Assembly (NCBI GenBank): GCA_050260015.1
Contig: JBLNBN010000046.1
Span: 4,699 to 68,698 of the forward strand
Length of the DNA stretch: 64,000 bases
Origin: Chloroflexota bacterium
Lineage (GTDB): Bacteria > Bacteroidota > Ignavibacteria > Kapaibacteriales > UBA2268
Direction: 5' to 3'
This document shows, piece after piece, positions 7,125-64,000 of the stretch. The notes under the pieces were generated by a model. The model made no database searches and had not been told where the DNA came from. It saw only the letters and a program-made list of their open reading frames with translations. Numbering within the stretch: the first letter of the stretch is position 1; every line of letters begins with the position of its first letter. The position numbers and the translations under genes are program-made.

Positions 7125-7245
7125 AAGAACGAATAGAAATATTTAAATAAAACTTATAAATAATTGTCCTGTAGCGCCTTAAAGGCCTCCTTGGCATGTT
7201 ATTTGCTTCATTTACCGAAGCTAAAACCATAATTACGAGTCCAAA

Positions 7246-34500: not shown

Positions 34501-35401
34501 TGAGAGCTTCTCGAGGACGTTCCTGACCTTCCCGACCATATTCGGGTTTAACCCGCTAAGCAATACGGTCGAGCACGTCGTCGAGCTCTACAATCAGCGT
34601 AAACAAGTTATACTTAACTCCAACGCGGACACTATAACGAAGAACCAACGGCTGCAGGAAGCGCTCTCGAAATCGTTCTACGAAGGACTCGAGGCGTTCA
34701 GCATTACTGGCGGGCGCGCGGGCAAATTCCTGCCGGCGATCAACTGGGCCATCCGCTGGGAAGGGCTGGAGAAATTTTCCTTCTGGAAGTCGATCGTTAA
34801 GCGCGCGTCGCTCGAGCACGCCTATATCTCCACGTACCAGGAGAGCGTGCTGATAACCGACAACGGCCGCGGCATCCAAAGCCAGATCGTTCAGTACGGA
34901 TTTTCGCCCCTTATAGGCGTTACTGCGGGCTTCGACGAAAAGAAGCTCGACGGTACGCTCACGGCGAGCTTCCGCTGGAATTCGACGAAGAGTTACCAGG
35001 TGAACTCCGTTATGCGGTCGGCGATCTCCTCGCAGTCCACTAACGAGATCACAGGTACGGCCAGCTACGTTATGCGCGGTTTCGAATTTCCATTCTTCGG
35101 TATAAATCTAAAGAACGATTTTGAAATGAGCTTTTTGGCGACGTACAAGGACAACGCGCAGGCGTCCTACAACATACTCGACCCGACGAGCTACGAAGGA
35201 ACACAAAACGCAGGAATGCCCCTGACGGGCAATACGCAGATAATTCTCGAGCCCCGCGCGCGTTACTCCATCAGCGATAAGGTTACGGCTTCGGCCTACT
35301 TCCGCTACGAAGGGACGTTCTCCGAGGGCGCGGCGAACAGCGGCTACCACACGACGCAAGTGGGATTGGACCTGCGAATTAACGTCAGCGGCGGAAGGTA
35401 A
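28523..35401 (+). CDS. sprA: Type IX secretion system translocon SprA/Sov-like outer-membrane protein
   Basis: 2292 aa. N-terminal signal peptide, beta-rich composition, C-terminal barrel-like end. Size and T9SS genomic context match SprA. Assignment is by size, context and composition, not by a motif I can name. Start taken from the ORF track. Confidence 0.7.
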   Translation: MKKRILTAFLYAACASLPIGMALQAALTAATDIIPESVVFRSAAMGVLGAFGPNLFLLLGAQVPTTQTPADSAAPPRSVRYRQLTTPSRPTEDEIRFGRDAANLPRGYRSNYDVDSVGGSVYSQRSIDSFRLGYGYSIDLDTYLGKRRAQIQNGIWDSLLTSYDMKKALSRGDLSRMVAQATGFSIPIPPNPISSIFGKPEISINVNGEVNLRVGWRWDSQNLGTVSAYGQTQSSPIFNQDIKLDISAKIGDKLKLGTNWNTRQAFDYDNQFKLGYEGYDDDIIKRVEFGNVNFPIPSTLIGGGQALFGVRSDYQFGPLYLKTVFSQRRGQRKFVDVRGGSNRQPFQVRAYDYSRNHFFLDTGYKQIYDDYFKNGTPIIPNTPRAREMAIKQIEVWEATTDVAEQAIRSARSVAIADLPGKRRRLGENWTFAEKAQPTQSGLVERGNFIRLDTNSYRVDMNLGTLTLYSMRQDRYYAVSYRTEGATPDSADDVYYGTFANQVGELDTLLLKLVYRPNIQPAWKSIWSRQMKNIYSINATNVSTTDTRISLWYIRQSNDSADVLEGAPDKLVTIFGVDRMNVSAGTATPDGVFDLRPPFFDAQRGEITFPSAEPFGDGLRRYFSRLGNPELAELYTFDQVYDTTYDIAARNTARDRFVISGEVTGRATNNISLGAFNLAPNSVRVSLDGVTLRENDDYRVNYYSGTLTILNPRASLPNANLRVEYEQQDMFNVSTKTLAGLRADYTLIKARTANMGLGFTFMHYDQSATIDRVRLGDEPVSNTMFGFDTKLNWETPWMTRALDLLPFYETKAPSSMSLGGEWAMMLPLPNKRRSEIASDNSEPVVFIDDFEGAQRYVPLGINTSLWTHSAPPVAPDIDSTGSGVNNYRGRLYWWQFFNPRVPIKEVYPKNESFQQGRMNLGPLYVNFDPDYRGIYNRNPEYTDPLSKQYYDSLNPYASRPEIRKKTWAGFQRLLSSFYTNFDADNIEYIEITMSVGNREGSTKMFIDLGQISEDIIPNGSLNTEDGITDKVRIPNGIIDVGEDVGIDSLSDANEKIMYPFPLNQEDDPSRDNYYFDFNKDDRERGPSDFLRYNNYEGNSTQSELGQFPDTEIMNSTNGQSLSLDNSYFTYEVNLEPNPDLNSQIVGGNPEAGWLVYRIPVRKPTSFVGAPLFSNIQYARVRFQGGRFEARIVDWKLVGSQWQRISNLQNVPANDSTLQLSFVNLWENSGEPEFYSMPPGVRAPRELNNPDPTQDIRKNEQSLAVSVRNLKFGEERMTTRIFHPLDIFFYKKLKFFIHGDGAMPDNSLPGATPKAYAYMRFGTDSLNYYEYRRPLVRGWQDIEINLTELTEVKQRRDSTMQYDRQTFPLRNDPLATFSIRGNPVLTRVQFFGVGISNPAERFPNELTTTMWVDELRLISPEDASDWAAVGNFDMKLADLGSISASIQNSMPNFHKLEERFGRRIGSVNWAVSMQGNLEKFAPKSFNGMRIPISYSHSELAEEPEFVANNDVNLDRAVAVAKQNAYAQAKSGGLSESEAQALASSAERATRSRSQSLRVQDSWALTGVKLGLPTNEWYIRETVNRLTVGYSYSQEMERSPVYTQRFNWQWRLGAQYNVQVPPIAAFAPLKWADSLPGLGYFSKWKINLLPTSFSTGVDLARRRQTEQSRFLDFPSPVVRDFSANRTAQMAWKLTEGGLLNPLVDYSVTTISTLVPFELEPNGRQRTGSELASQILFKDGAIFDFGKNSQHTQNVTINFKPRLPIGVAAEYLDMTGSFNTVYSWSDPLQPDPAIRDIAKNASYNNQIRYNTVFKIKQLGDKLYGARKTALGPKADSARASMNSDFDNIIRGLFFDWENMNLTFSQTSSSNNPGVYGGNGMNNFWGRGLLFQNSRAIYGPSFAYQLGLIDDPHGTIGVVPSSTFPYIGFRTKMGKRPPNAVLQDNFRQQTGLELRTSRPLWEGATLDVNWKTDLGFNRNQTINTDEFGNVRISNKNATESFSRTFLTFPTIFGFNPLSNTVEHVVELYNQRKQVILNSNADTITKNQRLQEALSKSFYEGLEAFSITGGRAGKFLPAINWAIRWEGLEKFSFWKSIVKRASLEHAYISTYQESVLITDNGRGIQSQIVQYGFSPLIGVTAGFDEKKLDGTLTASFRWNSTKSYQVNSVMRSAISSQSTNEITGTASYVMRGFEFPFFGINLKNDFEMSFLATYKDNAQASYNILDPTSYEGTQNAGMPLTGNTQIILEPRARYSISDKVTASAYFRYEGTFSEGAANSGYHTTQVGLDLRINVSGGR

Positions 35402-42428: not shown

Positions 42429-43679
42429 CTATAAATACAAACCGGCTATAACGGCCGTCATCAGGTTAGCTAAAGCTCCTATTGTCATGGCCTTTAAGCC
42501 GAGCTGGGCTATTTCCGTCTTTTTATCGGGGACCATCGCGCCAAGCCCGCCAATTTGTATGGCGATCGAGGAAAAATTAGCGAAACCGCAGAGCGCGAAG
42601 GTTGCTATACGGGCGGTTCGTTCGCTTATCGCTCCGGATTGGATCATTTTTGCCAGGTCGGCGTAAGCGACGAATTCGTTAAGGGCTATTTTTTGACCGA
42701 CGAGCGCCCCGAACGTCCTTGCTTCGTTGGCCGGGATGTTCGCTATATAGGCGAAGGGCTGGAAGATATAGCCCAAAAGCTCGGCGAGGCTCGAGGGCAG
42801 CCATGGGAAGCCGATGGGGGTTAGCCAGGCGTCGAGCGAACGGAAACCGGCGTCGAGCAGGGCTATCAATGAAATAAAGGCTATGAGCATCGCGATAATA
42901 TTAAGAACGAGCTTAAGGCCGTCCGCGGCGCCGTCTGTAATGGCTACCAGCACGTTGTCCGCGCGGGGTAGGTCGATATGCTTTATCTCTTCCGTCGTCG
43001 TGTCGGTCGCAGTCGGCGGCACGGCTATCTTCGAGAGCATCAGCCCCGTCGGAGCCGCAATTACGCTCGCCGCTATCAACGTTTCCGCGGAAATGCCCAT
43101 GGAGATATATGCGGCCATCACGCCGCCTGCGATAGTGCAGAACCCGCCGACCATTACGGCGCAAACCTCCGAGCGCGAGGCGTACGGAAGGTACTTGCGT
43201 ATGAGAAGCGGGGCCTCCGTCTGCCCTAAAAATACGTTCGCCGAAGCGTTGAGCGACTCCACGCCGCTCGTGCCCATAGTCTTTTCCATTACCCATGCCA
43301 TCGCGTAGACTATGCGCTGCATTATGCCGTAATGATAAAGTATAGAAATGAACGAGGAGAAGAAGACGATAGTGACGAGCACGATGGCTGCGAACTGAAA
43401 GCCGAAGGTCCCGGAAAAGCCCGGGTTGAGAAGGTTGCCGAACAGGAAGTCGGCGCTTTTATATCCATAATTCAGAAAGGTCGTTACTTTATCGCCTATC
43501 CACTGGAATATGCCCACGCCTGCGGGCACGTAAAGTATAAATGTGGCGGCGGCAAATTGAAGGGCAAGCCCGAAGATGACGATGCGGAATGGGAATGCCC
43601 TGCGATTTTCCGAGATCAGCCAGCAGACGAATAAAATTAAAATGACGCCGAGCGCGCCGAGGAGCTTTGATGCGAACAT
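42429..43679 (-). CDS. nupC: Concentrative nucleoside transporter (NupC/CNT family)
   Basis: 416 aa polytopic membrane protein. Family call is by resemblance to NupC/CNT transporters, not by a named motif. Confidence 0.7.
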   Translation of the reverse strand: MFASKLLGALGVILILFVCWLISENRRAFPFRIVIFGLALQFAAATFILYVPAGVGIFQWIGDKVTTFLNYGYKSADFLFGNLLNPGFSGTFGFQFAAIVLVTIVFFSSFISILYHYGIMQRIVYAMAWVMEKTMGTSGVESLNASANVFLGQTEAPLLIRKYLPYASRSEVCAVMVGGFCTIAGGVMAAYISMGISAETLIAASVIAAPTGLMLSKIAVPPTATDTTTEEIKHIDLPRADNVLVAITDGAADGLKLVLNIIAMLIAFISLIALLDAGFRSLDAWLTPIGFPWLPSSLAELLGYIFQPFAYIANIPANEARTFGALVGQKIALNEFVAYADLAKMIQSGAISERTARIATFALCGFANFSSIAIQIGGLGAMVPDKKTEIAQLGLKAMTIGALANLMTAVIAGLYL

Positions 43680-43887
43680 ATATATTTTACTCTTTCATTG
43701 TTATTGCAGACGCGGTAATTTAACCAAAACGGAATTAATAAAAAAGGGAAGTTTTTTCATTGGCTTAGGGCGCTCGAAGCGCCGTTTGCCGGCGTTAATA
43801 AAATTATTAGCGGAAATTTATAAAAAAATTATATTTTGCGTAATAGCGGGAATTGAACTATCTAATATTAATATATGGGGAGATATT

Positions 43888-46800
43888 ATGCGGAAAGGTT
43901 TATACTTATTAGCGGCGTTATTTCTCATTCCTTCGATAGCTTTTTCCCAGGGCGTGACGACGGCGGCGATGAACGGCCTGGTAGCCGACGACGTCGGGAA
44001 GCCCCTGGCCGGCGCGACTGTGCAGGCGACTCATATCCCGACCGGGACGCGCTCGGGCGCGGTTACTAATTCCGCCGGAAGGTACAACATACGCGGGCTG
44101 CGGCCCGGGGGACCGTACTCGGTGGTCGTTACTATGGTTGGGTTTGCACGGCAGCAAAAGGATAATATAATGCTCTCGCTCGACGAAAACTTAAAGCTCG
44201 ACTTTACGCTAACGGAGAGCGGGGTGCAGCTGCAGGCCGTAACGGTGACCGCTACCCGCAGCGACGTGATCAACACCAACCGCACAGGTTCGGCGCAGCT
44301 TATCGCTCAATCGGAAATTGAGAGCCTGCCAACGATAGCGCGCTCCCTTCACGATTACTCCCGGCTTTCCCCGCAGATCATTTCATCGACTTCCGAGGGG
44401 TCGAACGTCTCCGGCAGGAACAGCAAATACAACAACATACAGGTGGACGGCGCCGTAATGAGCGACGCGTTCGGGCTGAACACCAGCGGAACTCCCGGCG
44501 GAGCGGCTAACGCCGAGCCTATTTCGCTCGACGCCATCCAGGAATTCCAGGTGGCGATCGCCCCGTTCGACGTGCGGCAGGGCGGCTTTACCGGGGGGCT
44601 CATAAACGCTATAACGCGCGGAGGCACGAATTTCTACCACGGCTCGGCCTACGTCTTCCGCCGCGACGAGAGCTTAATCGCTAAAAGCCCGGTGGAAAGC
44701 TGGGACGTACGCGACCGGAACGGCAACGGGATTATTGAAAAATCGGATTCTATAAAAAAGCGGGCGCCCTACCCCGACTTTGACGAAACTACCGTAGGCG
44801 GCTCGGTCGGAGGAAAAATTATAGCCGACAAGCTGTTCTTCTTCGCCAACGGCGAATACCGCGGACGCAGCGATCCGCAGGTCCTGGGAATTCAGGACCC
44901 GGCGGCCGCCAATAACTTCGACGTGCCGTTGGACTCAATACGGGCGATACAGGCGATAGCGCGAAATACGTATAATTACGACCCGGGCAGCATTGACCCC
45001 TATACGCGTACGAGCGGCGACGTAAAGCTTTTTATGAGATTGGACTATAATTTATCGAATCGTCATCGACTTACTCTTCGGCACAACTACGTCGACGCAC
45101 GGCAGGACAACTCCGTGACGCGCTCGCGGTTCTTCTTCTCCTTCGAAGGGCAGGAATACGTCTATCGCAGCAGGCAGAACCAGAGCGTGCTGCAGCTAAA
45201 CAGCGTCTTCGGCCATGAATTTGCAAATGAGTTCAGGGCGGCGGCGACCTTCATTCGCGATAAGCGCGACTATCAATCCAACCCCTTCCCCGCGGTAACT
45301 ATCCAAAACCTTGGCGACGACGCGCGCTATAGCATAGGGCTAGGCGTGGATAGATTCTCGCAGGCAAACGCGATCGACCAGGATATAATTGAAATTACCG
45401 ACAATTTTACCTGGTTCGCCGGCAATTTCCACGGGGACCACGTAGTAACGCTCGGCACGACTAACCAATTCGTAACGTTCGATAACTTGTTCGCCCAGGA
45501 TATATTCGGCAGCTACACGTTCGCAAGCGTCGAGGACTTCGCCGCCGGCAAGCCCTCCTCCTACTCCCTAAGCTACCTGCGCGATGGCGGCAAGCCGCGC
45601 GCCAAGTACGGCTACGCCCAGCTGGCCTTCTACGCGCAGGACGAGTGGGGCATCCTCGACAACTTTAGATTGACGTTTGGCGTCAGGGGCGACATTTTTA
45701 CCTTTAACGATACCCCGACGGAAAACCCGACGTTCGCTCAATTCTTCCCCGGTCTGCATACGAGCGAAATGCCCTCCCCGGCCTCGGTCTCGCCTCGAAT
45801 GGGCTTTAACTGGGACGTTCGCGGCGACAAAACGCTGCAGGCCCGCGGCGGAGTCGGCTACTTTGCCGGACGTACTCCCGGCGTTTGGATAGGCAATCAA
45901 TTCTCCAATACGGGCATGGATTACTATAGAATCAACCTTGGCTCGCGGGACAAATTGCCTCAGTTCAATCCTGACCCATACCGCCAGCCCACCCAGGAAA
46001 CCGATTCGACGCTGAAGCTCGTAAAGACGACGGAAGTCAACATAACCGACCCGGATTTCCAAATGCCCCAGTTGCTTCGCGCGGACGTTGCGGCGGACTA
46101 TCAATTGTCGCCTGGATTCTATGCTACGGTCGAATTCATTTACGGCAAGACGATCTACGACGTTTTAATAAAGAACGTCAACCTGCTGCCAATGACCGCT
46201 CCGGGCGGCGGGCGGCTCGTCAGCATCGACGGCAGGCCGATGTACAACGGTAAGAATACCGTCAGCTCGAACGACTTCACCGGCGTTTACGAGCTGACCA
46301 ATTCCCGGAAGGGCTACCAAAGCTCCGTCTCGATCCAGCTTCAAAAGCCTTTCAGGCAGGGTTTTCTTCCCGAGATGAGCCTGAACTTCGCTTACGTTTA
46401 CAGCCAGGCGAAGGACGTCAACAGCGCGACTTCGAGCCGCGCTGTGTCGAATTGGCAGTTCAACCACGTCGTTGACCCCAACGATCCCGAACTCTCGACT
46501 TCCCTCTTCGAAATACCTCATCGCATCATGGGCTCCATCGCTTATCAGTTTAAATACGGGGAAAATTGGTTCGGCGGGGACGCCTGGGCGACGACCCTGG
46601 GGCTTTACTACGAGGGCCGAAGCGGCTCGCCGTACTCCTTCCTCTATTACACGCGCTCCAATTACAAGTTCGCGAGCGCGCCCGTCCAGGACGCCAACGT
46701 GCGCGACGCGAACAACGACGACATCTGGGGCAACGACCTGGTTTACATACCAACCGGGCCGCAGGACGATAAAGTAATACTCGTGGCCCCGGACGAAGCC

Positions 46801-47217
46801 AATCCCGGCGCATGGACGTCCCAAGCGGGCTGGGCCGAGCTTGAAAGCTTCCTGAACAGCGTCGACGGGCTCGAGCGCGGCAGGATAATGAAGAGATTCT
46901 CGCTGCGGCAGCCCTGGCGCGACCAACTGGACTTCCGGCTCACCCAGGACATACCGACAGTAAAGGGGCAGAAATTCCAGGTAACGCTCGACGTGATGAA
47001 CGTTTTGAACTTGCTCGACAAGGACTGGGGCAAGCAGAAGTACGTTAGCAACTCCGCGTACTCGCTATTCGAGTTCCGCGGTTACGATCGCGACACGGGC
47101 CGGATGCGCATCGCCTACGTTCCAAACTCGCGCGGCAATACCGAGGACGATATATTCGAAACGAGCGACTTCTGGTCCCGCTGGCAGATGCAGCTCGGGC
47201 TGCGCTACACGTTTTAA
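43888..47217 (+). CDS. TonB-dependent outer-membrane receptor with N-terminal carboxypeptidase-regulatory-like domain
   Basis: Signal peptide MRKGLYLLAALFLIPSIAFSQ. True start at 43888 preceded by GGGGAG. The track ORF from 43576 is an artefactual extension over nupC. Plug plus about 1000-aa barrel, C-terminal RYTF. Confidence 0.8.
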   Translation: MRKGLYLLAALFLIPSIAFSQGVTTAAMNGLVADDVGKPLAGATVQATHIPTGTRSGAVTNSAGRYNIRGLRPGGPYSVVVTMVGFARQQKDNIMLSLDENLKLDFTLTESGVQLQAVTVTATRSDVINTNRTGSAQLIAQSEIESLPTIARSLHDYSRLSPQIISSTSEGSNVSGRNSKYNNIQVDGAVMSDAFGLNTSGTPGGAANAEPISLDAIQEFQVAIAPFDVRQGGFTGGLINAITRGGTNFYHGSAYVFRRDESLIAKSPVESWDVRDRNGNGIIEKSDSIKKRAPYPDFDETTVGGSVGGKIIADKLFFFANGEYRGRSDPQVLGIQDPAAANNFDVPLDSIRAIQAIARNTYNYDPGSIDPYTRTSGDVKLFMRLDYNLSNRHRLTLRHNYVDARQDNSVTRSRFFFSFEGQEYVYRSRQNQSVLQLNSVFGHEFANEFRAAATFIRDKRDYQSNPFPAVTIQNLGDDARYSIGLGVDRFSQANAIDQDIIEITDNFTWFAGNFHGDHVVTLGTTNQFVTFDNLFAQDIFGSYTFASVEDFAAGKPSSYSLSYLRDGGKPRAKYGYAQLAFYAQDEWGILDNFRLTFGVRGDIFTFNDTPTENPTFAQFFPGLHTSEMPSPASVSPRMGFNWDVRGDKTLQARGGVGYFAGRTPGVWIGNQFSNTGMDYYRINLGSRDKLPQFNPDPYRQPTQETDSTLKLVKTTEVNITDPDFQMPQLLRADVAADYQLSPGFYATVEFIYGKTIYDVLIKNVNLLPMTAPGGGRLVSIDGRPMYNGKNTVSSNDFTGVYELTNSRKGYQSSVSIQLQKPFRQGFLPEMSLNFAYVYSQAKDVNSATSSRAVSNWQFNHVVDPNDPELSTSLFEIPHRIMGSIAYQFKYGENWFGGDAWATTLGLYYEGRSGSPYSFLYYTRSNYKFASAPVQDANVRDANNDDIWGNDLVYIPTGPQDDKVILVAPDEANPGAWTSQAGWAELESFLNSVDGLERGRIMKRFSLRQPWRDQLDFRLTQDIPTVKGQKFQVTLDVMNVLNLLDKDWGKQKYVSNSAYSLFEFRGYDRDTGRMRIAYVPNSRGNTEDDIFETSDFWSRWQMQLGLRYTF

Positions 47218-48731: not shown

Positions 48732-49307
48732 ATGAAAATAGCGGTATTCGCCTCGCATGGCGGATCGAATATGCAAGCGATAATAGACGCTATAAAGGAA
48801 GGCAGGCTTCAGGCTGAGGTCTGCCTTGTCATATCCAACAACTCCTCCTCTATGGCCCTCGAGCGCGCCCGCAACGAAGGCATCCCCTGCGCGCACATGA
48901 GTTCGAAAACTCATGGCGAACTGCTCGACGAAGCTATACTTGACGCTCTTCGTGCCGCCGCCGCTGATTTAATCGTATTGGCCGGCTACATGAAAAAGCT
49001 TTCCCCCGCCATTGTTCGCGAATACGCCGGCAGGATACTTAACATTCACCCGGCGCTGCTGCCCAAGTTCGGCGGCGAGGGAATGTACGGCATGCGCGTG
49101 CACGAAGCCGTTATCGCCGCCGGCGAGACTAAGAGCGGCGCGACCGTCCACTTCGTCGACGAGGAATTCGATCGCGGCGAGATCCTCCTCCAGCGCGAAG
49201 TCCCCGTCTACCCTACCGACACGCCCGAAACGCTGGCCGCCCGCGTCCTCGAGGTAGAGCACCAAATATACCCCGAAGCCATAGGGCGGTTGATTAGTAA
49301 TGGTTAA
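48732..49307 (+). CDS. purN: Phosphoribosylglycinamide formyltransferase PurN
   Basis: 191 aa. SNMQAII and NIHPALLP formyltransferase motifs. Confidence 0.85.
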   Translation: MKIAVFASHGGSNMQAIIDAIKEGRLQAEVCLVISNNSSSMALERARNEGIPCAHMSSKTHGELLDEAILDALRAAAADLIVLAGYMKKLSPAIVREYAGRILNIHPALLPKFGGEGMYGMRVHEAVIAAGETKSGATVHFVDEEFDRGEILLQREVPVYPTDTPETLAARVLEVEHQIYPEAIGRLISNG

Positions 49308-49371: not shown

Positions 49372-49835
49372 ATCACGACATCAAAATGTGATACCGCGTT
49401 AGCGGTTGAACATCTGTAATGAAACGCCCAAACGCGAGATGTACCCCGTAGGGGTTCAACAGAGGGTAACTTTTAGAGCATTAACGGCATGCAAATTGAT
49501 AAAACTAAATGATATAGAAAAATTGTGTTCCAAGAATATTCTGCATGTTCCTTATAAACAAATTTATATTTTTTACCGCGTAGCGGTTGAACATCTGTAA
49601 CATAACGCCCAAGATCGAAATGTACCCCGTAGGGGTTCAACGGAGGGTAACGATTGGACTTCTAACGGCATGCATATTGATAAAACCAAATGGTATAATC
49701 AAAATTATATTGTAGAATTATTCCGTACTTATCTTACACAAAAGTTTAAACGTTTTTTACCGCGTAGCGGTTGAACATCTGTAACATAACGCCCAAGATC
49801 GAAATGTACCCCGTAGGGGTTCAATAAAAGAGCTA
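49372..49835 (+). repeat. Array of about 2.5 tandem ~182-bp units, each carrying a doublet of REP-like hairpins (TA-CCGCGTAGCGG-TTGAAC ... GTA-CCCCGTAGGGG-TTCAAC)
   Basis: Units start at 49393, 49574 and 49758. The hairpins are short GC palindromes with a conserved TT(G/C)AAC tail. Confidence 0.8.
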
Positions 49836-49876
49836 TAAACAGAATCCACTAATATTTATAAAATTAGGATGGCTTT

Positions 49877-50335
49877 ATGGCAAACACATATTCGCAAATA
49901 TTCATACATGTGATTATTTGCGTTCAGGATCGCGATAGAAGGATAACCCCTGAGTTAAATCCGTAGATTTGTAAGTATATTACTGGAATAGTCAGCCACA
50001 GAGGGAGCAAAGTTATATCAATATATGCAATGCCCGATCATCTCCACATTTTAATAAGTTTAAATCCGGATGAAGCTCTCTCAGAGCTGGTAAAAGAGAT
50101 TAAACGAAGTTTTACGCTCTATATAAACGATAACAACCAACTTCCGAGAAGATTTCAATGGCAAGCCGGCTATGCCGCTTTTTCCTATTCCAGATCGATG
50201 ATAAAAATTGTTAGCAAATATATCGAAAACCAAGAAAAACACCATAAAGTAAAGACTTTTAGGGAAGAGTATATCGAATTCTTAGAGAAGTTTGGAGTTG
50301 AATACGACTTAAAATATATATTTACAGAAAGTTAA
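49877..50335 (+). pseudogene. REP-associated tyrosine transposase (RAYT, IS200/IS605 TnpA-like) interrupted by an in-frame TAG at codon 30
   Basis: MANTYSQIFIHV...(TAG)...ICKYITGIV...MPDHLHILIS (HuH) ... QWQAGYAAFSYS (catalytic Tyr region). One frame, 152 codons. Low GC relative to the surroundings. Confidence 0.75.
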
Positions 50336-50735
50336 GATGTTCAACGCCTACGGCGTAGCATATCTCCGCTTGGTTCGATGTTACAGATGTATAACGCCTA
50401 CGGCGTAGTCAACAGTGGATATTTACCATCATCACGACATCAAAATCTAAAGTATTTAATATCGCTTCGCGGTTGAATAGCTGTGATATTGCGAAATAAA
50501 TATGAATTATATTCTGAAGGAATTCCGTGAAGATGTCCAACGCCTACGGCGTAGCATCTCACTGATTATTTCGTTGTTACAGATGTATAACGCCTACGGC
50601 GTAAAGATTGGAGCGACTCGAATGCAGTTCCGCCGAGCAAGCTTTTGAAACACCTAACGTACCGCGTTAGCGGTTCTACATCTGTAACAGTGGGCAGAAA
50701 CGGGCAAAGTACCCCGTAGGGGTTCAACTGATACG
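50336..50735. repeat. Cluster of REP-like hairpins mostly in inverted orientation (GTTCAA-CGCCTACGGCG-TA variants), then forward copies, downstream of the RAYT gene
   Basis: These are reverse complements of the left-hand REPs. Together they give a classic RAYT-flanking inverted REP arrangement. Confidence 0.75.
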
Positions 50736-50883: not shown

Positions 50884-52119
50884 ATGAAACGTATTTACTC
50901 TTTCCTATTTGCCGCGATATTGCTTGCGCTTGCGGCCTGCAACGACGATAACGGCCCGGCTAACCCGGATTCCAACTCCGCCAAAATTACCTGGACCGAA
51001 AAAACTACGGAATTTATGGCCGACGAAGTAGATTCCTTTACCGAAGACTATAAGATGATCACGTTCAAGGAGACTTCCTCGAAAGCCAAAACGCTCAAGG
51101 CGGGAGATATAGTCTTCCTCTATGGAAAAGCTCTTAAAAAGGTAAAATCCGTTAGCCAGAACGGCGGGAGAACTGTCGTTACGACCGAATACTGCCGGCT
51201 GAACGAAGCGATCCGCGACGGCGAGATAAGCTGGAACCAGCCGCTGCGCTTTTCGAAAGAAATGGCCGGGGACGTTCAGATGATCCCCGCGCTGCCCGGC
51301 TCGAAAATCCTCGACGGCAACGAAGTGGAATTCACCTTCCCCGTCGGCAACGGCATGGAGGGCAAGATCAAGGTGGGACTGAACGGCGATAGGCTCGACG
51401 CTGACTGCGAAGTCACGAAAAAATCAGGCGCGTTCAACGTTAAGTACGCCTTCGAAGGCTACGCGCAGAACATGAAGACGCAGGGCAAGATAAAGTACGA
51501 GGGCGGGGAGCTGAAGGAATTCGGCTATACTAACAAGAACATCGAGGGCGAAGTAACCGTTTCGCTCACGGCGACGGGCTCCACCAAGGATTTGCTAAAC
51601 GGGATCGAATTGCCGTTCGCGTTGGTTAAGGTTCCCGTGGTTATTGGCGGCGTGCCCTGCACATTCAACTTAAAAGTACTTTTCGTGATCAACACGGAAA
51701 TGGCGTCGCTCGACGCGTCCGCTCACATCAAGACGAAATTCAAGTTTAACTCCGAAACCGGCGTCAAGTACGACGGCACGGACGTGGGCGTCGTCGGCGC
51801 GGCGGGCCCGTACAACATGGATTTCCTGAAGGACTCCTGCTGGGTGGGCAGCTCGACGGCCGCAGGAATTAACTTCGGCATTACCTTCCCCCGCTTCGAA
51901 TTAGCCCTGTTCGGCGAGGTGGTCGTCCCCTACGTACAGACGGCGTTCCTGATAGGCGGCGCGTTTACGGCCGGCACGAAGCCCTGCCTGAAGATCGACG
52001 CCTCGTATATCGGCGCCATCGGCTACGATTTCGACTTCCTGGGACTACTAAAATTCAGCGGCAAGAAGAACCTCTGGCAGTACGACAAAAATATAAAGAA
52101 GATCGGCGACTGCGACTAA
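50884..52119 (+). CDS. Hypothetical lipoprotein (411 aa), REP-flanked
   Basis: Lipobox LLALAAC. No recognisable catalytic motif. No T9SS tail. Confidence 0.55.
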   Translation: MKRIYSFLFAAILLALAACNDDNGPANPDSNSAKITWTEKTTEFMADEVDSFTEDYKMITFKETSSKAKTLKAGDIVFLYGKALKKVKSVSQNGGRTVVTTEYCRLNEAIRDGEISWNQPLRFSKEMAGDVQMIPALPGSKILDGNEVEFTFPVGNGMEGKIKVGLNGDRLDADCEVTKKSGAFNVKYAFEGYAQNMKTQGKIKYEGGELKEFGYTNKNIEGEVTVSLTATGSTKDLLNGIELPFALVKVPVVIGGVPCTFNLKVLFVINTEMASLDASAHIKTKFKFNSETGVKYDGTDVGVVGAAGPYNMDFLKDSCWVGSSTAAGINFGITFPRFELALFGEVVVPYVQTAFLIGGAFTAGTKPCLKIDASYIGAIGYDFDFLGLLKFSGKKNLWQYDKNIKKIGDCD

Positions 52120-52160: not shown

Positions 52161-52531
52161 ATGTCCAACGCCTATGGCGTAGAAAGCGGAGAGATATCAA
52201 CCGCATCGCTACATAAACTCGAATGAAGTTTTACCGCGAGGCGGTTGAACATCTGTAACAAGACGCTAAAACGCGGAAAGTACTCCGTAGGAGTTCAACA
52301 AAAATGAAGCCCAACGCTTACGGCATAGAAAGCGGAGAGATATCAACCACATCGCTACATAAACTCGAATGAATTTTTACCGCGTAGCGGTTGAACATCT
52401 GTAACAAGACGCTAAAACGCGGAAAGTACTCCGTAGGAGTTCAACAAAAATGAAGCCCAACGCCTACGGCGTAGTAAGCGGAGAGATATCAACCGCATCG
52501 CGACATAAACTCGAATGAAGTTTTACCGCTA
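52161..52531. repeat. Tandem array (about 2.5 copies, period 146 bp) of composite BIME-like units with three REP hairpins per unit
   Basis: Unit starts at about 52165, 52311 and 52457. Copies are nearly identical. Confidence 0.8.
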
Positions 52532-52565: not shown

Positions 52566-53987
52566 TTATTGTTTGATAAAACGCTCGTAATGCTTGAACG
52601 CTCCGTCGCTAAACTCTAAATAATACGCTCCTGCGGCATAGGCGCTAACGTCCAATTTTATTTCGCCATCCTTATTCGTTTTTACGTTGTCAATCAATTT
52701 TCCGTCGTTTGACAATATTCGTATGTTAAATATTCTTTCTAACTCTGAATCGAATAAAATGTTTACCGTTTCTTCAACGGGGTTGGGGTATATTTTTACG
52801 CTGAAGCGGTTCGCTTCGGAACTAATATCGAAAACGCCTATATCGCTCTGCGTTATGGTCCACTCAACGTAGAAAATGTGTTCCACCGGGTGTGAATCGG
52901 AGCGTACCCAAGACGTGGTATCGTTAAGCTTAGCGATTAATTGATTTTGGCCTTTCTTTAAGGATCCGGCGGAAACGCTAACTGAATCAGAATGGGTTGT
53001 TAGAATATTGTCGTTTAAAGACCATTCCATTTTCAGCGTATTTGGTTGCGGCTTTAATAAGTCAATGGAAAAGCTGAGTGAATCTTTTAATTCCAATTCC
53101 GGTTCTAAAGGATAGTAATTCATGATTGGATTGACCAGGGAATGTATCCTTTCAACGATAGTTTCGCGGCAAACTGCGCAGAATTCGCGATTAAGGTTTT
53201 CCATTTCGCATACTCCCTCGGTAGGCTTGTACCAGTCATATCCAGGAAACTTATAAATACCAATGCCGGAGCCGAAGGGCAGCCAGTTTTTCCATTTGAT
53301 CGTAAGCGGGTTGTTGTTTTGAGTCATATTCGGCTTTTCATAGGCGTACTGCAATCCTGCCCAGTATTCGTCGGCAAGGTAGGCAAAAGTGTGCCCAATT
53401 TCATGCACGGCTATTTCGTTGCTTGCCAAGCTTAACGTTGCTGTCGCAACCCCGCCGCCGGAGCCGCCGTAGTGTTTGGAGTTGGCTAATAGGAAGACTA
53501 AATCGTAATTTGGAAAATTATCCGCTAACACGCCGGAAAGGGCCGAATAGTTGGTAGGACAAACAAGTCTATGTATGCCGGCGCAATCAAAAGTCGATCC
53601 ATAAAAATTTTCAGGATTTGAAAAAGGGTGCGTGGTATCTTGGGGATTGCAATCCTCGGCAGTTAAAGGATGCTTTACTCCGCTCTCAATTGAAGGCGTA
53701 TATATGCAGTAAACGTTAAAATAATTTTTATAGGATGAGAAGGGCGCCTTTTTGAAAAAGTAGTCTACGAAACTTTCCGCGTGGCTTTTGAAATCAATTA
53801 GTTCGGCTTCAGTATAACCATCGCCAAGAATAACTATGTTGATGAATTTTCCAGGATCTCCGTGGAAAACTAAAGTGTCCACATCAAATACTTCAGGTTT
53901 GGCGGGAATTGGCGAAAAGAACGTCATCGCAATTACCGCGATAGCAAAATAGATTATAATTGCCTTCATATGTATTCCCTTGTTCAT
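52566..53987 (-). CDS. M64-family (IgA-peptidase-like) zinc metalloprotease with T9SS C-terminal sorting domain; low-GC gene
   Basis: HEIGHTFAYLADEY zinc motif typical of the M64 family. C-terminal Por tail (KIYPNPVEETVNILF...). GC content is clearly below that of neighbouring core genes. Alternative start at 53969 (MKAIIIYF...). Confidence 0.7.
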   Translation of the reverse strand: MNKGIHMKAIIIYFAIAVIAMTFFSPIPAKPEVFDVDTLVFHGDPGKFINIVILGDGYTEAELIDFKSHAESFVDYFFKKAPFSSYKNYFNVYCIYTPSIESGVKHPLTAEDCNPQDTTHPFSNPENFYGSTFDCAGIHRLVCPTNYSALSGVLADNFPNYDLVFLLANSKHYGGSGGGVATATLSLASNEIAVHEIGHTFAYLADEYWAGLQYAYEKPNMTQNNNPLTIKWKNWLPFGSGIGIYKFPGYDWYKPTEGVCEMENLNREFCAVCRETIVERIHSLVNPIMNYYPLEPELELKDSLSFSIDLLKPQPNTLKMEWSLNDNILTTHSDSVSVSAGSLKKGQNQLIAKLNDTTSWVRSDSHPVEHIFYVEWTITQSDIGVFDISSEANRFSVKIYPNPVEETVNILFDSELERIFNIRILSNDGKLIDNVKTNKDGEIKLDVSAYAAGAYYLEFSDGAFKHYERFIKQ

Positions 53988-53991
53988 AGTT

Positions 53992-54531
53992 TTATCTAAG
54001 CTCTATCTTACTTAGTAATATGGCATTTCCTTTTGCGGCGGTTTCTTTAATAACCATACTTTTGGAATTTTTCATTTCTATGCGGATAAAGAACTCCGCA
54101 TCTTTAAGTATTACGGCTTTTGTAGTTAATTGAGAATTTTCATCGACGTATTCGAACGACTTGTAGAGGGGATGCTCAATGGAGAAAGAATCTATAAGCG
54201 CCGAATCGGAATCATAAATCATGAAAGTAAGATAGCTGCTATAATTTATAGGTTCCTCCGCCCCCGTTTTGATCTTTCCTGGCTTTTTATTTATAGAGAG
54301 AATATGCAATCGGCTTGCGGAGGCGAGCGAATCGCTTTCTATCTTCATTGTGATAAAGGCGACGCTATCGGGCAGAACCTGTTTAATCCCGTGAGCTTCC
54401 TCGCGAGTAATATTCGTTTTCCCGCAGGCCGACGCGCTTAGCGCAATAGCCAAGTAGAGTAAAAAAAGTTTTGGAAATACGTCTATAGCCCAGCGCATCT
54501 TCTTAAATCTAACAGTTGTTAAATGGTTCAA
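53992..54531 (-). CDS. Hypothetical lipoprotein (about 170 aa), low GC, co-oriented with the M64 peptidase gene
   Basis: Lipobox LSASAC. Likely start is the internal Met at 54498. Confidence 0.45.
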   Translation of the reverse strand: MNHLTTVRFKKMRWAIDVFPKLFLLYLAIALSASACGKTNITREEAHGIKQVLPDSVAFITMKIESDSLASASRLHILSINKKPGKIKTGAEEPINYSSYLTFMIYDSDSALIDSFSIEHPLYKSFEYVDENSQLTTKAVILKDAEFFIRIEMKNSKSMVIKETAAKGNAILLSKIELR

Positions 54532-54689
54532 GCAGCAAATATATGAAATAATGTATAATTTTGGTCATACGGTCACCCCTGCAAGGTCGATATTATTCTA
54601 TTGAGGTAAATATAATGTCGCCCCTCCGGGGCTTTAGTCGTTCTATAAGTTTCTTGACGTAAGCTTACGCTTACGGTTACGAATGATTC

Positions 54690-54850
54690 AACCCCTGCGG
54701 GGCAGAAATTTTAATTCTTAGAGACTTTCCACAGATTGCGTCGGCAATTTGCCTGAATCTTCAACCGCTTTAGCGGTTATATGCCAATAGCCATAAAAAT
54801 ATCTGAAGCGAACTCGAACGCCGTAGGTGTTAAATATTACCTGGAACTCG
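54690..54850. repeat. Degenerate REP-like hairpin copies in both orientations (TTCAACCCCTGCGGGG, TTCAACCGCTTTAGCGG, CGCCGTAGGTG) marking the right edge of the accessory island
   Basis: Sequence similarity to the REP variants at 49.4-50.7 kb. Confidence 0.55.
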
Positions 54851-54934: not shown

Positions 54935-54976
54935 AGACAAGATTGTCTTAATTTTGAATCAGAACAAAATGTCTGA
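54935..54976. promoter_or_regulatory. Two adjacent palindromes sharing AGACA/TGTCT half-sites (AGACAAgaTTGTCT; TCAGAacaaaatgTCTGA), about 50-90 nt upstream of hcp
   Basis: Inverted repeats in the AT-rich hcp leader. Candidate operator for an HcpR/NsrR-type regulator. Confidence 0.35.
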
Positions 54977-55026
54977 ATAAAAATATGTTTTTCGTTTAAC
55001 TTAATTCAATTCAAAAAGGAAAGAAA

Positions 55027-56673
55027 ATGTTTTGTTATCAATGCGAACAGACTTCGCGCGGCACGGGTTGCAATAATTCGGTCGGCGTTTGCGGTAAGGA
55101 CGACTTAACGGCGTCAATGCAAGATTTGCTAGTTTACGCAGCCAAGGGACTTTCTATTTACGCCACGAGACTTCGCCGCGCCGGCATCGCGCGACGCGAA
55201 TTCGACGCCTTTGCGCTCGAAGCTCTTTTCACTACGGTTACCAACGTCAACTTCGACGCCGGGAAAGTTAAGGAAATGGTTCGCCGCGGCGCGGAACTGA
55301 TCGCCCAGGCGCGCAAGCTCTACGAGGATAATCTCCGCGAGAACGGGCTCGAGCCCGAGCGGCTCCCCGCCCCCGCTTATTTTGAGTTCATTGATAACGA
55401 CGCGCTGCTCGAAACCTTCGGGGCCAAGGCTTCGATCGAGACCCGCAAGCTCGAGGTAGGCGCGGACCAAGCCGGCGCCGAGGAGTTGGTTATTTATGGG
55501 TTAAAGGGCCTAGCGGCATACGCGGAGCACGCATACGTGTTGGGTTACGTCGACGAAGAAATTTTCGCAAGGATCCACTCCACGCTCGACTTCCTCTGCC
55601 ACCCGGCTAATACCCTGGAAGCTATCTTAGGAAAAGCCCTGGAAACCGGCGAATTGAACCTCGTAGTCATGGAACTGCTCGACCGCGCGAATACGACTTC
55701 CTACGGCCACCCGACGCCCACGAAAGTGCGAGTCACGCCGCTCGCGGGCAAGGCGATACTCGTCAGCGGGCACGACCTGCTCGATCTCGAGCATCTCCTA
55801 AAGCAGACGGAAGGCAAGGGAGTTAACATTTACACGCACGGCGAGATGCTCCCCGCGCACGGCTACCCGGAATTAAAGAAATACGCGCATCTCGTAGGCA
55901 ACTACGGCGGCGCATGGCAGGATCAGCAGATGGAATTCGAGCAGTTCCCGGGCGCGATCCTAATGACGACAAATTGCATCCAGAAGCCCCGCGAAAGCTA
56001 TAACGACCGTATCTTCACGAGCGGCTTAGTTGAATTCCCCGGCGTAGAGCATTGCGAAGCCCGCGACTTCTCGAAAGTAATCGAATGCGCTCTCGGCTGC
56101 GAAGGATTTACGGCGGACGAGGAAGAAAAGACTATCTTGACCGGCTTCGGCCGCAACGCCGTTCTCTCGGTTGCGGATAAGGTAGTCGACGCGGTAAAGA
56201 CCGGCGCTATCAAGCATTTTTACCTAATCGGCGGTTGCGACGGCGCGAAGAGCGGCAGAAACTACTATACCGACTTCGCACTTTCTGCCCCGAAGGACAG
56301 CGTAATCCTAACGTTAGCCTGCGGCAAGTTCCGTTTCAACAAATTTGAATTCGGCGAGATCGGCGGGCTGCCGCGCCTGATGGATATAGGGCAGTGCAAC
56401 GACGCATACTCGGCGATAGTAATCGCTTCGAAGCTCGCCGAGGCGTTCGGCACGGACGTCAACGGCTTGCCGCTTTCGCTAGTTCTCTCGTGGTACGAGC
56501 AAAAGGCCGTCGCCATACTATTGACGCTGCTGCATCTTGGCATAAAGAACATCAAGATCGGCCCGGCGCTTCCCGCGTTCCTCGAGCCGGGCATCGTGCA
56601 GATATTAGTGGACAATTACGGTTTGGCGCCCATCGGCACGGTAGAAAATGATTTAGTTTCAGAGCGCGCATAA
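55027..56673 (+). CDS. hcp: Hydroxylamine reductase / hybrid-cluster protein Hcp
   Basis: 548 aa. N-terminal MFCYQCEQTSRGTGC Cys cluster typical of Hcp. Confidence 0.9.
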   Translation: MFCYQCEQTSRGTGCNNSVGVCGKDDLTASMQDLLVYAAKGLSIYATRLRRAGIARREFDAFALEALFTTVTNVNFDAGKVKEMVRRGAELIAQARKLYEDNLRENGLEPERLPAPAYFEFIDNDALLETFGAKASIETRKLEVGADQAGAEELVIYGLKGLAAYAEHAYVLGYVDEEIFARIHSTLDFLCHPANTLEAILGKALETGELNLVVMELLDRANTTSYGHPTPTKVRVTPLAGKAILVSGHDLLDLEHLLKQTEGKGVNIYTHGEMLPAHGYPELKKYAHLVGNYGGAWQDQQMEFEQFPGAILMTTNCIQKPRESYNDRIFTSGLVEFPGVEHCEARDFSKVIECALGCEGFTADEEEKTILTGFGRNAVLSVADKVVDAVKTGAIKHFYLIGGCDGAKSGRNYYTDFALSAPKDSVILTLACGKFRFNKFEFGEIGGLPRLMDIGQCNDAYSAIVIASKLAEAFGTDVNGLPLSLVLSWYEQKAVAILLTLLHLGIKNIKIGPALPAFLEPGIVQILVDNYGLAPIGTVENDLVSERA

Positions 56674-62162: not shown

Positions 62163-64000
62163 CTACTCGGCATAGTCAAATATATACGATAATTTTGCGA
62201 AGTATGTTCTGCCGGAGCTGTAAGTCATTGCGCGCCTGTTCACATAGTCGGTTAGGTTGTCGACGCCAATTTGCACGTTAAACCTGTTTGCAAAATCCTT
62301 AGCAGCGGACAAATTCCACATAGCGTAACCGGGAGCGTACTCGGATTCGTCGTCGAGTATTTCGTTCCCGTTCTTGTCGTAAATGCCGTACCGCGTTCTG
62401 AAAGTTCCGCGCAGCGAGGCCGTAAATCCGCTCTCCTTGTCGCTAACGGATATCTTCAGAGAGCCGCTGTGATTCGAGCGATTGAACAAACCGCCGTACT
62501 CGACCATTTGTACCGGGCGCGCGCCGTATTTCCCTTTCTTGTATATTTCTTTGTTCTCAATTCTCTTCTCTGCGTTGAAATCGCCTGTTTGAAGGAATTG
62601 ATAATTCGTCGAGACAGAGAGCCAGGCATAAGGCTTGTATGAAGCCGATAGCTCGAAGCCCTGCGTATAAATTTTTGAGAGATTGACGTAGGAATTCACG
62701 TAGCTGCCGTTTTTGTTCCTGGCAACGCGCATGAATTCGATCATGTCTTTTATCTGGTTGTAAAAGGCCGAAGCGTTCACGTCCAGGACGCCGAATAATT
62801 CCGCAGAAAACCCCGCGCTATAGGAAATGCTATGTTCTGGAAGAAGGGCTTTAAGCCTATCCGGCGCGACTATTATTTCGCTGATTACGCTGTCGCGGAT
62901 AAGCGCTTCAAGTCCTTCAGTAAAGTTGCTCGACCCGAAAACGGAGTATCCGGCTATAGGATTGTTCCAGTTCAGGTAGAGTTCTTCGAAGGTAGGAGCC
63001 TTAAAGCCGGTCCCAACGGAGCTTCTTAAGGTGAAATCGTCGAATAGCTTGTAGGAAGCCGCGAGCTTAGGGCTGAACTTCGACGCGTAGTCGCTATGCG
63101 AATCGTATCGCGCGCTTGCGATCGTGTTTAGCTTTTTCGTTGGGAACCAATCTGCCTGGAAAAATCCGTAAAAAAGATCCGCGAATCTCTTGCCGCCGGC
63201 GATTATCTCGGTTTTGGCTCCCTCGCGGTTCCAACCGGCTCCGCCGGTTAGAAGCAAGCTGCGACTAACCATGTAATTGGACTGCGCTTCCACTTTCTGT
63301 AAGTTTTCGTAGTATTCATAATTGTAGTAAGCCGTGTCGGCGTCGGCATAGGAATAATATGTTGATATGTCGTTTATCCCGCCATAAACCCGGAGTTCCG
63401 CGTTGACGTCCTCGTTTAGCTGGCTTTTTAGGGTCAATCCGCCTCCGCCAACCAGCATAGCGCTGTTATCCTGCGAAGCGGGCTTTGCGGAGTCAAGCGA
63501 GGGATAGGAATTAAACTGTCCCTGCGAGTTTATTCTGCCATGTAGCTTGAGCGTAGTTTCTTCGGCGAATTTATACGTTGCGGAGAGGTTGGAAGTAAAG
63601 TTGTCGAACTTAGGCACGGCGTTGCCTACGCTATTAGGGTCGATTTTATACCCGTCGCTGGAAAGCCTGTTAAAGTCGAGAGAAAGCCCGAAGTCGTTTA
63701 ATGCGTTGTAGTGCGAGGCGGCTCCGGCAAGCTCTAGCGTATTGTGGCTGCCGTAGCGGGCGGAGAGATTTAGCTTAAAGGGCGATTCAGGTTCGTCGGT
63801 GATTAAATTGATAACGCCCGCCAATGCATTGCTGCCATAGAGCGAGGAGGCGGGCCCCTTTACGATTTCAATCCTTTTTAAGTTGGAAATTCCAATCCTA
63901 TCCAGATCGCCGGAGCCGGTAGCGCTTCCGCCAATAGGTTCCCCGTTGATTAAAATTACCGCGTATTGCGGGTCCAGCCCTTGTATCTGCACGCCCTTAC
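62163..64000 (-). CDS. TonB-dependent outer-membrane receptor (partial; N-terminus lies beyond the window end)
   Basis: Plug-domain motifs (IEIVKGPASSLYGSNALAGVINLIT) and a long beta-barrel. The ORF runs off the window edge. Confidence 0.8.
   Translation of the reverse strand, partial: KGVQIQGLDPQYAVILINGEPIGGSATGSGDLDRIGISNLKRIEIVKGPASSLYGSNALAGVINLITDEPESPFKLNLSARYGSHNTLELAGAASHYNALNDFGLSLDFNRLSSDGYKIDPNSVGNAVPKFDNFTSNLSATYKFAEETTLKLHGRINSQGQFNSYPSLDSAKPASQDNSAMLVGGGGLTLKSQLNEDVNAELRVYGGINDISTYYSYADADTAYYNYEYYENLQKVEAQSNYMVSRSLLLTGGAGWNREGAKTEIIAGGKRFADLFYGFFQADWFPTKKLNTIASARYDSHSDYASKFSPKLAASYKLFDDFTLRSSVGTGFKAPTFEELYLNWNNPIAGYSVFGSSNFTEGLEALIRDSVISEIIVAPDRLKALLPEHSISYSAGFSAELFGVLDVNASAFYNQIKDMIEFMRVARNKNGSYVNSYVNLSKIYTQGFELSASYKPYAWLSVSTNYQFLQTGDFNAEKRIENKEIYKKGKYGARPVQMVEYGGLFNRSNHSGSLKISVSDKESGFTASLRGTFRTRYGIYDKNGNEILDDESEYAPGYAMWNLSAAKDFANRFNVQIGVDNLTDYVNRRAMTYSSGRTYFAKLSYIFDYAE

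Follow-up and report, generated by a model that had tools for sequence, protein, structure and literature searches.

The M64 peptidases carry the motif HEXXHXXXGXXD, in which the two histidines and the aspartate are zinc ligands and the glutamate is the base (PMC12402451). The founding member of the family is the immunoglobulin A (IgA) protease of Thomasclavelia (Clostridium) ramosa, a sortase-anchored, multidomain protein of ~1200 aa from a Gram-positive bacterium. In the characterised Bacteroides enzyme BF3526, which does not cleave intact IgA and which cleaves after Pro, an N-terminal β-sandwich (residues 21–145) restricts access to the active site; the catalytic domain is not expressible without this N-terminal domain, and proteolytic loss of the sandwich turns the BF3526-type enzyme into a non-specific protease (PMC12402451). 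Another described arrangement is that of the potempins of Tannerella forsythia, small lipoproteins whose open reading frames (ORFs) lie ≤5 bp upstream of genes for peptidases that the type IX secretion system (T9SS) secretes, are co-transcribed with them, and encode specifically inhibitory products (PMC9890683). Here we analyse a locus in a 64,000-nucleotide stretch of contig JBLNBN010000046.1, the whole of which is called the window below, where a lipoprotein gene is followed on the minus strand by a gene for an M64 peptidase with a T9SS sorting domain.

A tightly coupled operon of a lipoprotein and an M64 peptidase

The locus is a tightly coupled two-gene operon on the minus strand, in which the first gene encodes a lipoprotein and the second the M64 peptidase with its T9SS tail. 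The features that make up the two genes are as follows.

53992–54498, minus: conserved partner lipoprotein gene, 168 aa (a 179-aa ORF when read from TTG 54531), supported by the lipobox, operon conservation and a family search
52566–53987, minus: gene for an M64 zinc metallopeptidase that ends in a T9SS type-A sorting domain (PF09471, PF18962, TIGR04183)
53364–53405, minus: zinc-binding and catalytic motif HEIGHTFAYLADEY (alignment to 3p1v/4df9 and to 45 homologues)
52569–52793, minus: T9SS type-A C-terminal sorting domain, residues 399–473 (PF18962, TIGR04183, PDB 8glj_D)

The stop codon of the lipoprotein gene is separated by 4 nt from the ATG at 53987. The same arrangement was seen in all four M64 loci that were checked by hand, where the M64 homologues are 40–53% identical and an unannotated same-strand homologue of the small gene (146–158 codons; 37% identity, E 3e-30) lies upstream. 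In addition, 80 metagenome loci taken by an M64 profile were scanned with hidden Markov models (HMMs) for both genes, and 73 of them had enough upstream sequence. Of these 73 assessable loci, 66 had the small gene immediately upstream of the M64 gene. The distance from its stop to the M64 start had a median of 2 nt (63 loci) and fell within ±10 nt in 50 of the 63, with many 4-nt overlaps. Judged by this conservation, the lipoprotein that the preliminary description of the window had called adjacent is a partner dedicated to this protease subfamily and conserved in its operon, and the two-gene module is a standard accessory module of environmental Bacteroidota with low G+C (GC) content.

Both the gene callers and the homologues start the small ORF (53992–54531, minus strand) at ATG 54498, and the protein probably has 168 aa rather than the 179 aa originally given. 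A Bacteroidota-type TAnnTTTG box (TATATTTG, 54543–54536, minus strand) is located 4 nt upstream of TTG 54531 and ~37 nt upstream of ATG 54498; this single weak motif favours the 168-aa start, and a scan for sigma-70 promoters and terminators showed no enrichment. The protein consists of a signal peptide, a lipobox with Cys25, and a nine-strand all-β domain at residues 44–168. Its assignment as a lipoprotein held up well: Cys25 is invariant in a 41-sequence family alignment, and the lipobox Cys was present in all 66 members examined. Within the β domain, P110 of the H109-P110-L111 segment is invariant, and H109 and L111 occur in at least 90% of 66 sequences.

The family is sizeable, comprising 315 cluster representatives at E ≤1e-3, and an exhaustive search of representatives was needed to find it; a word-index search with the small protein returned only the protein itself, and a profile query returned four proteins. 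No Pfam or NCBIfam model matched the window protein, nor did any Pfam model match the 41 aligned members. At one of the metagenome loci (L100), we observed a 35-nt direct repeat (89% identity) with copies at 3723–3756, upstream of the small gene, and at 5713–5746, the second of which covers the last 20 nt of the M64 gene and 14 nt beyond it. This repeat may be what remains of a neighbouring paralogue, or a scar left by recombination.

The M64 ORF is 473 aa long from ATG 53987 or 467 aa from ATG 53969, the latter being the start preferred by gene callers and homologues. Exact look-ups of the 473-aa protein and of the purN product found no match; the callers use other start codons. From the N-terminus, the protein comprises a putative Sec signal peptide (the hydrophobic segment MKAIIIYFAIAVIAMTFFSPIPA, read from the sequence), a catalytic domain, a middle β domain and the sorting domain. 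Pfam Peptidase_M64 (PF09471) matched residues 43–237 of the 473-aa ORF with a score of 126.6 bits (E 1.4e-36; cut-off 26 bits), and Por_Secre_tail (PF18962) matched residues 399–469 (E 4.8e-12). TIGR04183 matched residues 399–473 (E 6.1e-10), which places the sorting domain at the extreme C-terminus, and a PDB sequence search aligned the same tail with the sorting domain of 8glj_D (E 0.002). The 473-aa ORF with an M64 zinc motif and a Por/T9SS tail was thereby confirmed at its exact coordinates, with the motif intact.

In the alignment, HEIGHTFAYLADEY lies opposite HEFGHSFGGLADEY of the Bacteroides M64 enzymes PDB 3p1v and 4df9, and it is predicted to provide the two His residues, the Glu base and the Asp of the catalytic site as well as the Glu of a second zinc site. 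The family motif corresponds to HEIGHTFAYLAD in the window enzyme, with Tyr at the Gly position, which is variable across the subfamily. Nine residues are invariant in 45 homologues: H189, E190, H193, D200, E201, Y202, C254, C264 and C267 (467-aa numbering). The zinc-site residues of the window enzyme correspond to H311/E312/H315/D322 and E323/C398/C409/C412 of BF3526 (PMC12402451 and our alignment), and the putative second, structural zinc site (E201, C254, C264 and C267) aligns to the C...C..C region of 3p1v. Since the zinc His residues, the catalytic Glu, the Asp ligand, and the Glu and three Cys of the second site are all invariant, the enzyme is predicted to be active.

The best PDB sequence matches of the M64 protein were 3p1v (E 8e-17) and 4df9/9qdi (E 1e-15), and the IgA proteases matched more weakly; BF3526 is a closer relative of the window enzyme than the clostridial IgA protease. 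BF3526 (PDB 4DF9/9QDI) and BACOVA_00663 (3P1V) have a homologous catalytic domain, with HExxH...DEY and a Cys-rich second zinc site. These two proteins possess a fused N-terminal gating β-sandwich and no T9SS tail, whereas the window enzyme opens with the catalytic domain and closes with a T9SS tail, and a lipoprotein is encoded separately upstream. With the T. ramosa protease, the window enzyme has in common the M64 core (36–39 bits, residues 188–334), but it is unlike that protein in size, anchoring and domain content, and the extra domains needed for the IgA specificity of the T. ramosa enzyme are absent from it. Nothing supports IgA as a substrate of the window enzyme, and the terms "IgA protease" and "effector" in the preliminary description are labels rather than evidence; BF3526 itself leaves intact IgA uncut.

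A homology search with the M64 protein found 812 proteins, and nearly all of the best 120 have the same two domains at a length of 464–470 aa. All of the named homologues with this architecture belong to Bacteroidota (Sporocytophaga, Prolixibacteraceae, Lacibacter, Flavobacteriaceae and Adhaeribacter), and the nearest non-self homologue among 5.8 billion proteins was 53% identical. Judging from these matches, the combination of M64 and Por_Secre_tail is a common, already annotated Bacteroidota architecture and the protease itself is ordinary, so that the earlier description of a T9SS-exported M64 peptidase as notable did not survive. The closest described proteins are those annotated as M64 family metallopeptidase in environmental Bacteroidota (Sporocytophaga myxococcoides P0006, Lacibacter P0081 and Flavobacteriaceae P0085). 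They share with the window enzyme the length of 464–470 aa, the domain order (putative signal peptide, M64 catalytic domain, β domain and Por_Secre_tail), all catalytic and zinc-site residues, and the same small gene upstream. The window locus differs from them in its sequence (≤53% identity), in a host whose GC content is ~12 points higher than that of the module, in being flanked by repetitive extragenic palindromic (REP) elements, and in its compositionally foreign character. The only novel element, and a modestly new one, is the conserved, uncharacterised partner lipoprotein together with the hypothesis that it controls the protease.

Predicted fold and possible role of the partner lipoprotein

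AlphaFold2 predicted a nine-strand all-β structure for the lipoprotein, with a predicted local distance difference test score (pLDDT) of 89.2 for the full protein; for residues 44–168 the score was 94.3 and the predicted template modelling score (pTM) was 0.84. In this model, His109-Pro110-Leu111 forms the tip of a β-hairpin. The fold matches describe a generic β-sandwich like those of C2 domains, immunoglobulin (Ig) domains and carbohydrate-binding modules, and Foldseek searches of the PDB with the lipoprotein models returned no significant match (best E 0.025). The M64 structures 3p1v and 9qdi occupied ranks 2, 4, 5 and 7 in the first search (prob 0.75–0.98, E 0.04–0.19, root mean square deviation (rmsd) ~8 Å). 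The highest query TM-score (TMq) among the top 50 PDB matches was that of 3p1v (0.42–0.47, and 0.47 with the trimmed model), the aligned region of the target being unspecified. Residue 43 of the window protease aligns to residue 152 of 3p1v, which indicates that the window protease is devoid of the N-terminal β-sandwich.

These results led us to consider a model in which the lipoprotein controls its protease. Following the established T9SS pathway, the protease would cross the inner membrane by Sec, fold in the periplasm, be recognised via its C-terminal domain and then be exported through SprA, the outer-membrane translocon that the window also encodes. The co-translated lipoprotein, anchored in the outer membrane, would bind its cognate protease and restrain or gate the active site until or after export. 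It might do so as a potempin-like inhibitor or by standing in, as the product of its own gene, for the N-terminal gate of BF3526, the domain that the window protease lacks, with the conserved tip of the His-Pro-Leu hairpin as the candidate contact. We regard this binding and restraint as quite possible, though somewhat short of probable; the counterpart of the N-terminal gate is an attractive and weakly supported version of it. In its widest form, which we offer tentatively, the proposal is that the ~150–170-aa lipoprotein family may be a so far overlooked, widespread cognate regulator of T9SS-secreted M64 peptidases. As a potempin-like latency factor or a detachable BF3526-type gate, it would hold the protease closed in the envelope via the His-Pro-Leu hairpin, and a broad-specificity endopeptidase would be released on export.

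The arrangement resembles that of the potempin/KLIKK pairs, in which the lipoprotein ORF likewise ends within a few bp of a T9SS peptidase gene, the operon is bicistronic and the partner is a small all-β protein. The proteins themselves differ. Potempins PotA–E have 5-strand oligonucleotide/oligosaccharide-binding (OB) folds or 8-strand up-and-down barrels, with neither sequence likeness nor detectable fold likeness to the window lipoprotein. They act on other peptidase families, occur in one pathogenic species and are surface-exposed, whereas the window family is widespread and has no acidic export signal. The lipoprotein was therefore not classified as a potempin, the arrangement alone being analogous.

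In Bacteroidota, acidic residues after the lipobox Cys serve as an export signal that marks surface lipoproteins. Asp or Glu was found at positions +2 to +5 in none of the 66 sequences, and Lys occupied position +5 in 39 of the 66. Because the acidic export signal after the lipobox Cys is missing, these sequences argue against surface exposure of the partner lipoprotein, though not decisively.

Several observations weigh against a regulatory role as proposed. Six of the 73 assessable loci had no detectable partner gene, indicating that the partner is not strictly required. All of the fold matches were non-significant (E ≥0.025, rmsd ~8 Å), no potempin structure appeared among the top 50 Foldseek matches with two models, and a comparison of the family profile with the PDB at E up to 10 gave no sequence link to the M64 N-terminal domain. 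At a further locus (L135, 2305 onward), the small-gene match is found on the downstream side of the M64 gene instead of the upstream side, and it may begin a second tandem module. Other candidate links were discarded: PDB sequence matches of the small family to Cas1 and PylS had E ≥0.19 and were judged to be chance, and a search for a Rosetta-stone fusion of the small domain with M64 found longer homologues with C-terminal extras only, and no N-terminal extension of the M64 protein in the loci without the small gene.

It is also conceivable that the co-transcribed lipoprotein is not a regulator but a substrate-capturing or surface-anchoring adaptor, or a chaperone for folding or for hand-over to the T9SS. 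Adjacency and tight coupling show that the two genes are functionally linked and say nothing of the direction of the link; a generic β-sandwich resembling C2, Ig and carbohydrate-binding modules is in keeping with such roles, and the dependence of BF3526 catalytic-domain expression on the N-terminal domain fits a folding role equally well. An adaptor at the cell surface is harder to reconcile with the missing acidic signal after the Cys, and the His-Pro-Leu hairpin tip resembles a loop for protein contact, or a pseudo-substrate loop, more than it does a glycan site. These two points are not decisive, and we consider such non-regulatory roles unlikely, though deserving of serious attention.

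Composition, flanking repeats and origin of the module

The interval between purN and hcp, in which the module lies, contains the following additional features.

48732–49307: purN, left boundary of the REP-rich interval
49386–50728, plus: second low-GC patch (0.36–0.44) with REP arrays and an IS200-like gene (GC, repeats, NCBIfam)
49877–50335, plus: IS200-like Y1 (HUH) transposase gene, GC 0.34 (NCBIfam IS200, translation)
50884–52119, plus: gene for a 411-aa lipoprotein of native composition (GC at third codon positions (GC3) 0.743), separating the two low-GC patches
52165–52529, plus: REP array of 2.5 tandem 146-nt units, located downstream of the M64 gene (repeat search, shuffle folding)
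54687–54837, no strand assigned: three REP-like hairpins in the spacer that separates the module from the hcp promoter, upstream of the module (repeat search)
55027–56673, plus: hcp (hydroxylamine reductase), native-GC right boundary of the island

The GC content of the module had been estimated by eye at ~40%, against ~58% for the neighbouring genes, and the computed values came close to this estimate. The M64 and lipoprotein genes have GC contents of 0.421 and 0.402 and GC3 values of 0.464 and 0.439, respectively. The 38 other genes of the window have a GC content of 0.531±0.035 and a GC3 of 0.651±0.053, which gives z-scores for the M64 and lipoprotein genes of −3.1 and −3.7 (GC) and −3.5 and −4.0 (GC3). 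The neighbours are of native composition (hcp 0.565, purN 0.576 and the 411-aa lipoprotein gene 0.540, a range of 54–58%). GC content along the window is accordingly not uniform, and the module is an outlier. Such a deviation is not a property of the module elsewhere: the difference between module and flanks is −0.116 in the window and has a median of −0.01 in the 33 other loci with adequate flanks, and the window is the only one of the 34 loci with a difference below −0.08.

The loci of the closest relatives have GC contents of 0.31–0.38. Because the window is the only locus with a deviating GC content, the loci of its relatives are GC-poor and the nearest homologue is only 53% identical, these sequence comparisons support import from an unsampled low-GC Bacteroidota-like donor. 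We consider it quite probable that the module is foreign DNA in this genome, having entered the purN–hcp interval of a T9SS-owning host of ~53% GC. Horizontal acquisition, as first suggested, remains the best reading of the composition relative to the 33 matched loci and of the distance to the nearest homologue, together with the IS200-like pseudogene and the REP arrays in the purN–hcp interval.

Against import, the homologue searches did not identify a donor, and no plasmid or phage carrier was found, the searches yielding only distant M64 genes of ≤31.5% identity. Rfam and tRNA scans found nothing in the interval, and the other sampled copies of the module come from one population, at 99.7–100% identity. 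The junction on the REP side is present in the original assembly only and was not confirmed by independent contigs.

The pair could instead be long resident and vertically inherited, with its low GC content arising from local mutational or expression effects. That no donor, integrase or att site was found, and that all sampled strains carry the module at 99–100% identity, would agree with this. Long residence would nevertheless leave a GC3 that lies 3.5–4 standard deviations below that of 38 co-resident genes, both immediate neighbours included, to be accounted for. The module is at host GC in 33 other hosts, and its GC of 0.41 is within the range of the usual hosts of the family. Vertical inheritance is improbable on these grounds.

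As regards the repeats, each 146-nt unit of the downstream array carries hairpins of the types CCAACGCCTACGGCGTAG, ACCGCGTAGCGGTTGAAC and ACTCCGTAGGAGTTCAAC, and a single unit folds better than shuffled sequences (z −2.6). On the other side of the module, the hairpins are located at 54687–54704 (minus, degenerate), 54760–54777 (minus, good) and 54818–54837 (plus, degenerate), and over its full length the stretch 54687–54837 folds no better than shuffled sequences (z −1.4). Of the two REP arrays that were said to bracket the module, the left one (52165–52529) is therefore real, while the right one is weaker than an array, consisting of one good and two degenerate hairpins. Hairpins of the form ACCGCGTAGCGGTTGAA or ACCCCGTAGGGGTTCAA are strongly clustered, 13 of the 14 in the 64-kb window lying within the 5.4 kb from 49.39 to 54.78 kb; the hairpin pattern had 7 and 10 matches where 0.03–0.04 were expected by chance.

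The IS200-like gene of the second low-GC patch, which has inverted REP hairpins on its flanks, is interrupted at codon 30 by an in-frame TAG. Its product scored 62.6 bits with the NCBIfam IS200 model (cut-off 55) and 37 bits with REP_Tyr_transpos (cut-off 80). The system is similar to the REP and REP-associated tyrosine transposase (RAYT) systems (REPIN) and to IS200/IS605 elements in its short hairpins, which are rich in GC and have a tail that is conserved (GGTTGAA or GGTTCAA), in the clustering of the hairpins in intergenic arrays, and in a Y1 HUH transposase gene flanked by inverted copies. It differs from REP/RAYT systems in that the transposase scores as IS200 rather than as RAYT and is interrupted by a stop codon. 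The 411-aa lipoprotein gene between the two patches is outside the imported module and gave only a weak PG1828-family signal.

Repeats also flank the module in two unrelated metagenome-derived genomes. In L087, it is bracketed by 128-nt direct repeats (4190–4442 and 6628–7500), with an adjacent RAYT gene (NCBIfam, 100 bits) and 58-nt inverted repeats, and in L090, arrays of the palindrome CCCTCTCC...GGAGAGGG lie on both sides of it (4226–4388 and 6456–6707). Neither the repeat families nor the transposases are related from one genome to another. Repeats shared between the two flanks were detected at 4 of 34 loci and in 2 of 67 shifted control brackets, a borderline enrichment. This pattern suggests that the module tends to sit in accessory, repeat-rich spacers, and we do not read it as REP-mediated mobilisation.

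A stronger interpretation, in which the module is the cargo of a unit mobilised by REP elements and a Y1 transposase, with the flanking hairpins as its movable ends, is very improbable. The flanking hairpins do have opposite orientations and the IS200-like gene lies only 2.2 kb from the module; the bracketing by each genome's own repeats in L087, with its adjoining RAYT, and in L090, together with the borderline enrichment, also point in this direction. However, the repeat families differ from genome to genome, the two Y1 proteins show hardly any relationship, a native-GC gene stands between the transposase and the module, and the transposase here is a pseudogene. Moreover, ~30 of the 34 loci have no flanking repeats, and REPs accumulate in any long intergenic spacer.

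Finally, a mis-assembly or a chimera of binning as the source of the low-GC segment can be dismissed almost entirely. The Chloroflexota label of the record is at odds with the gene content, and the contig runs across repeat arrays at which other assemblies are interrupted, but Logan contigs from at least four runs (L001, L002 and L004) independently link the M64 gene with hcp, sua5 and gatB (99.7–100% identity). A chimera was rejected on the hcp side on account of this continuity. Independent short-read assemblies of the same population break inside the REP arrays, which is consistent with a multi-copy repeat. Seven assemblies (L093–L099) follow the window to 52182 and then enter a REP copy that resembles 50339–50395 rather than the sequence from 52183 onward; either the samples differ in the REP array that follows the 411-aa gene, or the assemblers collapsed it.

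Host, export route and significance

The export machinery is represented in the window by one large gene.

28523–35401, plus: SprA/Sov, the T9SS outer-membrane translocon (TIGR04189, 944 bits; Pfam SprA_N, E 3.9e-52)

From this assignment, we infer that SprA/Sov is the export route of the M64 protein; the remaining T9SS components lie outside the window. A second T9SS cargo is also encoded in the window, an Omp28-like protein with a sorting domain (9590–11791, plus strand, native GC). Next to it, at 11947–14214 (plus strand), is a native-GC gene for a secreted 755-aa protein of ASH/DUF1573-type Ig-like repeats. The window further encodes TonB-dependent receptors with CarboxypepD_reg domains, HmuY, a Porphyromonas-type deiminase, and a methyl-accepting chemotaxis protein with four HAMP_2 domains; the coordinates 28523–35401, 43576–47217, 62163–63992 and 39390–42263 are examples of this gene content. 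Because SprA, sorting-domain cargo, TonB-dependent receptors and HmuY are present, the label "Chloroflexota", or the binning behind it, appears doubtful. The gene content suggests a two-membrane (diderm), T9SS-bearing host, which looks more like a member of the Fibrobacterota–Chlorobiota–Bacteroidota (FCB) group. Whatever its name, the host can, judging by these genes, export T9SS cargo.

The lineage is poorly represented among GTDB species representatives: the best match of the hcp protein among 185,579 of them was 65% identical, and the matches were spread across many phyla (Zixibacteria, Planctomycetota, Fermentibacteria and others). Upstream of hcp, we observed a perfect palindrome, AGACAA-GA-TTGTCT (54935–54948), and an imperfect one, TCAGAAC-AAAAT-GTCTGA (54955–54979), which could be candidate operators for an hcp regulator.

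As a whole, an imported operon, T9SS export and a partner role of the lipoprotein together form what we consider, with good confidence, the best explanation of the locus. The locus is a clean example of a secreted enzyme that moved with its partner gene into a host already owning the matching secretion system, and the module shows what makes such a unit transferable. Its upstream gene represents a family that is without a Pfam or NCBIfam model and whose translation is, in nearly every case, coupled to that of this protease subfamily. If the lipoprotein is a cognate inhibitor or gate, the pair would constitute a new protease-control module and the lipoprotein a new inhibitor scaffold for M64 enzymes, which are currently of interest for IgA biology. 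The principle of a protease paired with a cognate lipoprotein would then reach beyond a single oral pathogen to environmental Bacteroidota, in hundreds of lineages, and, since the two genes travel as a pair, the transferable unit would bring its own protection.

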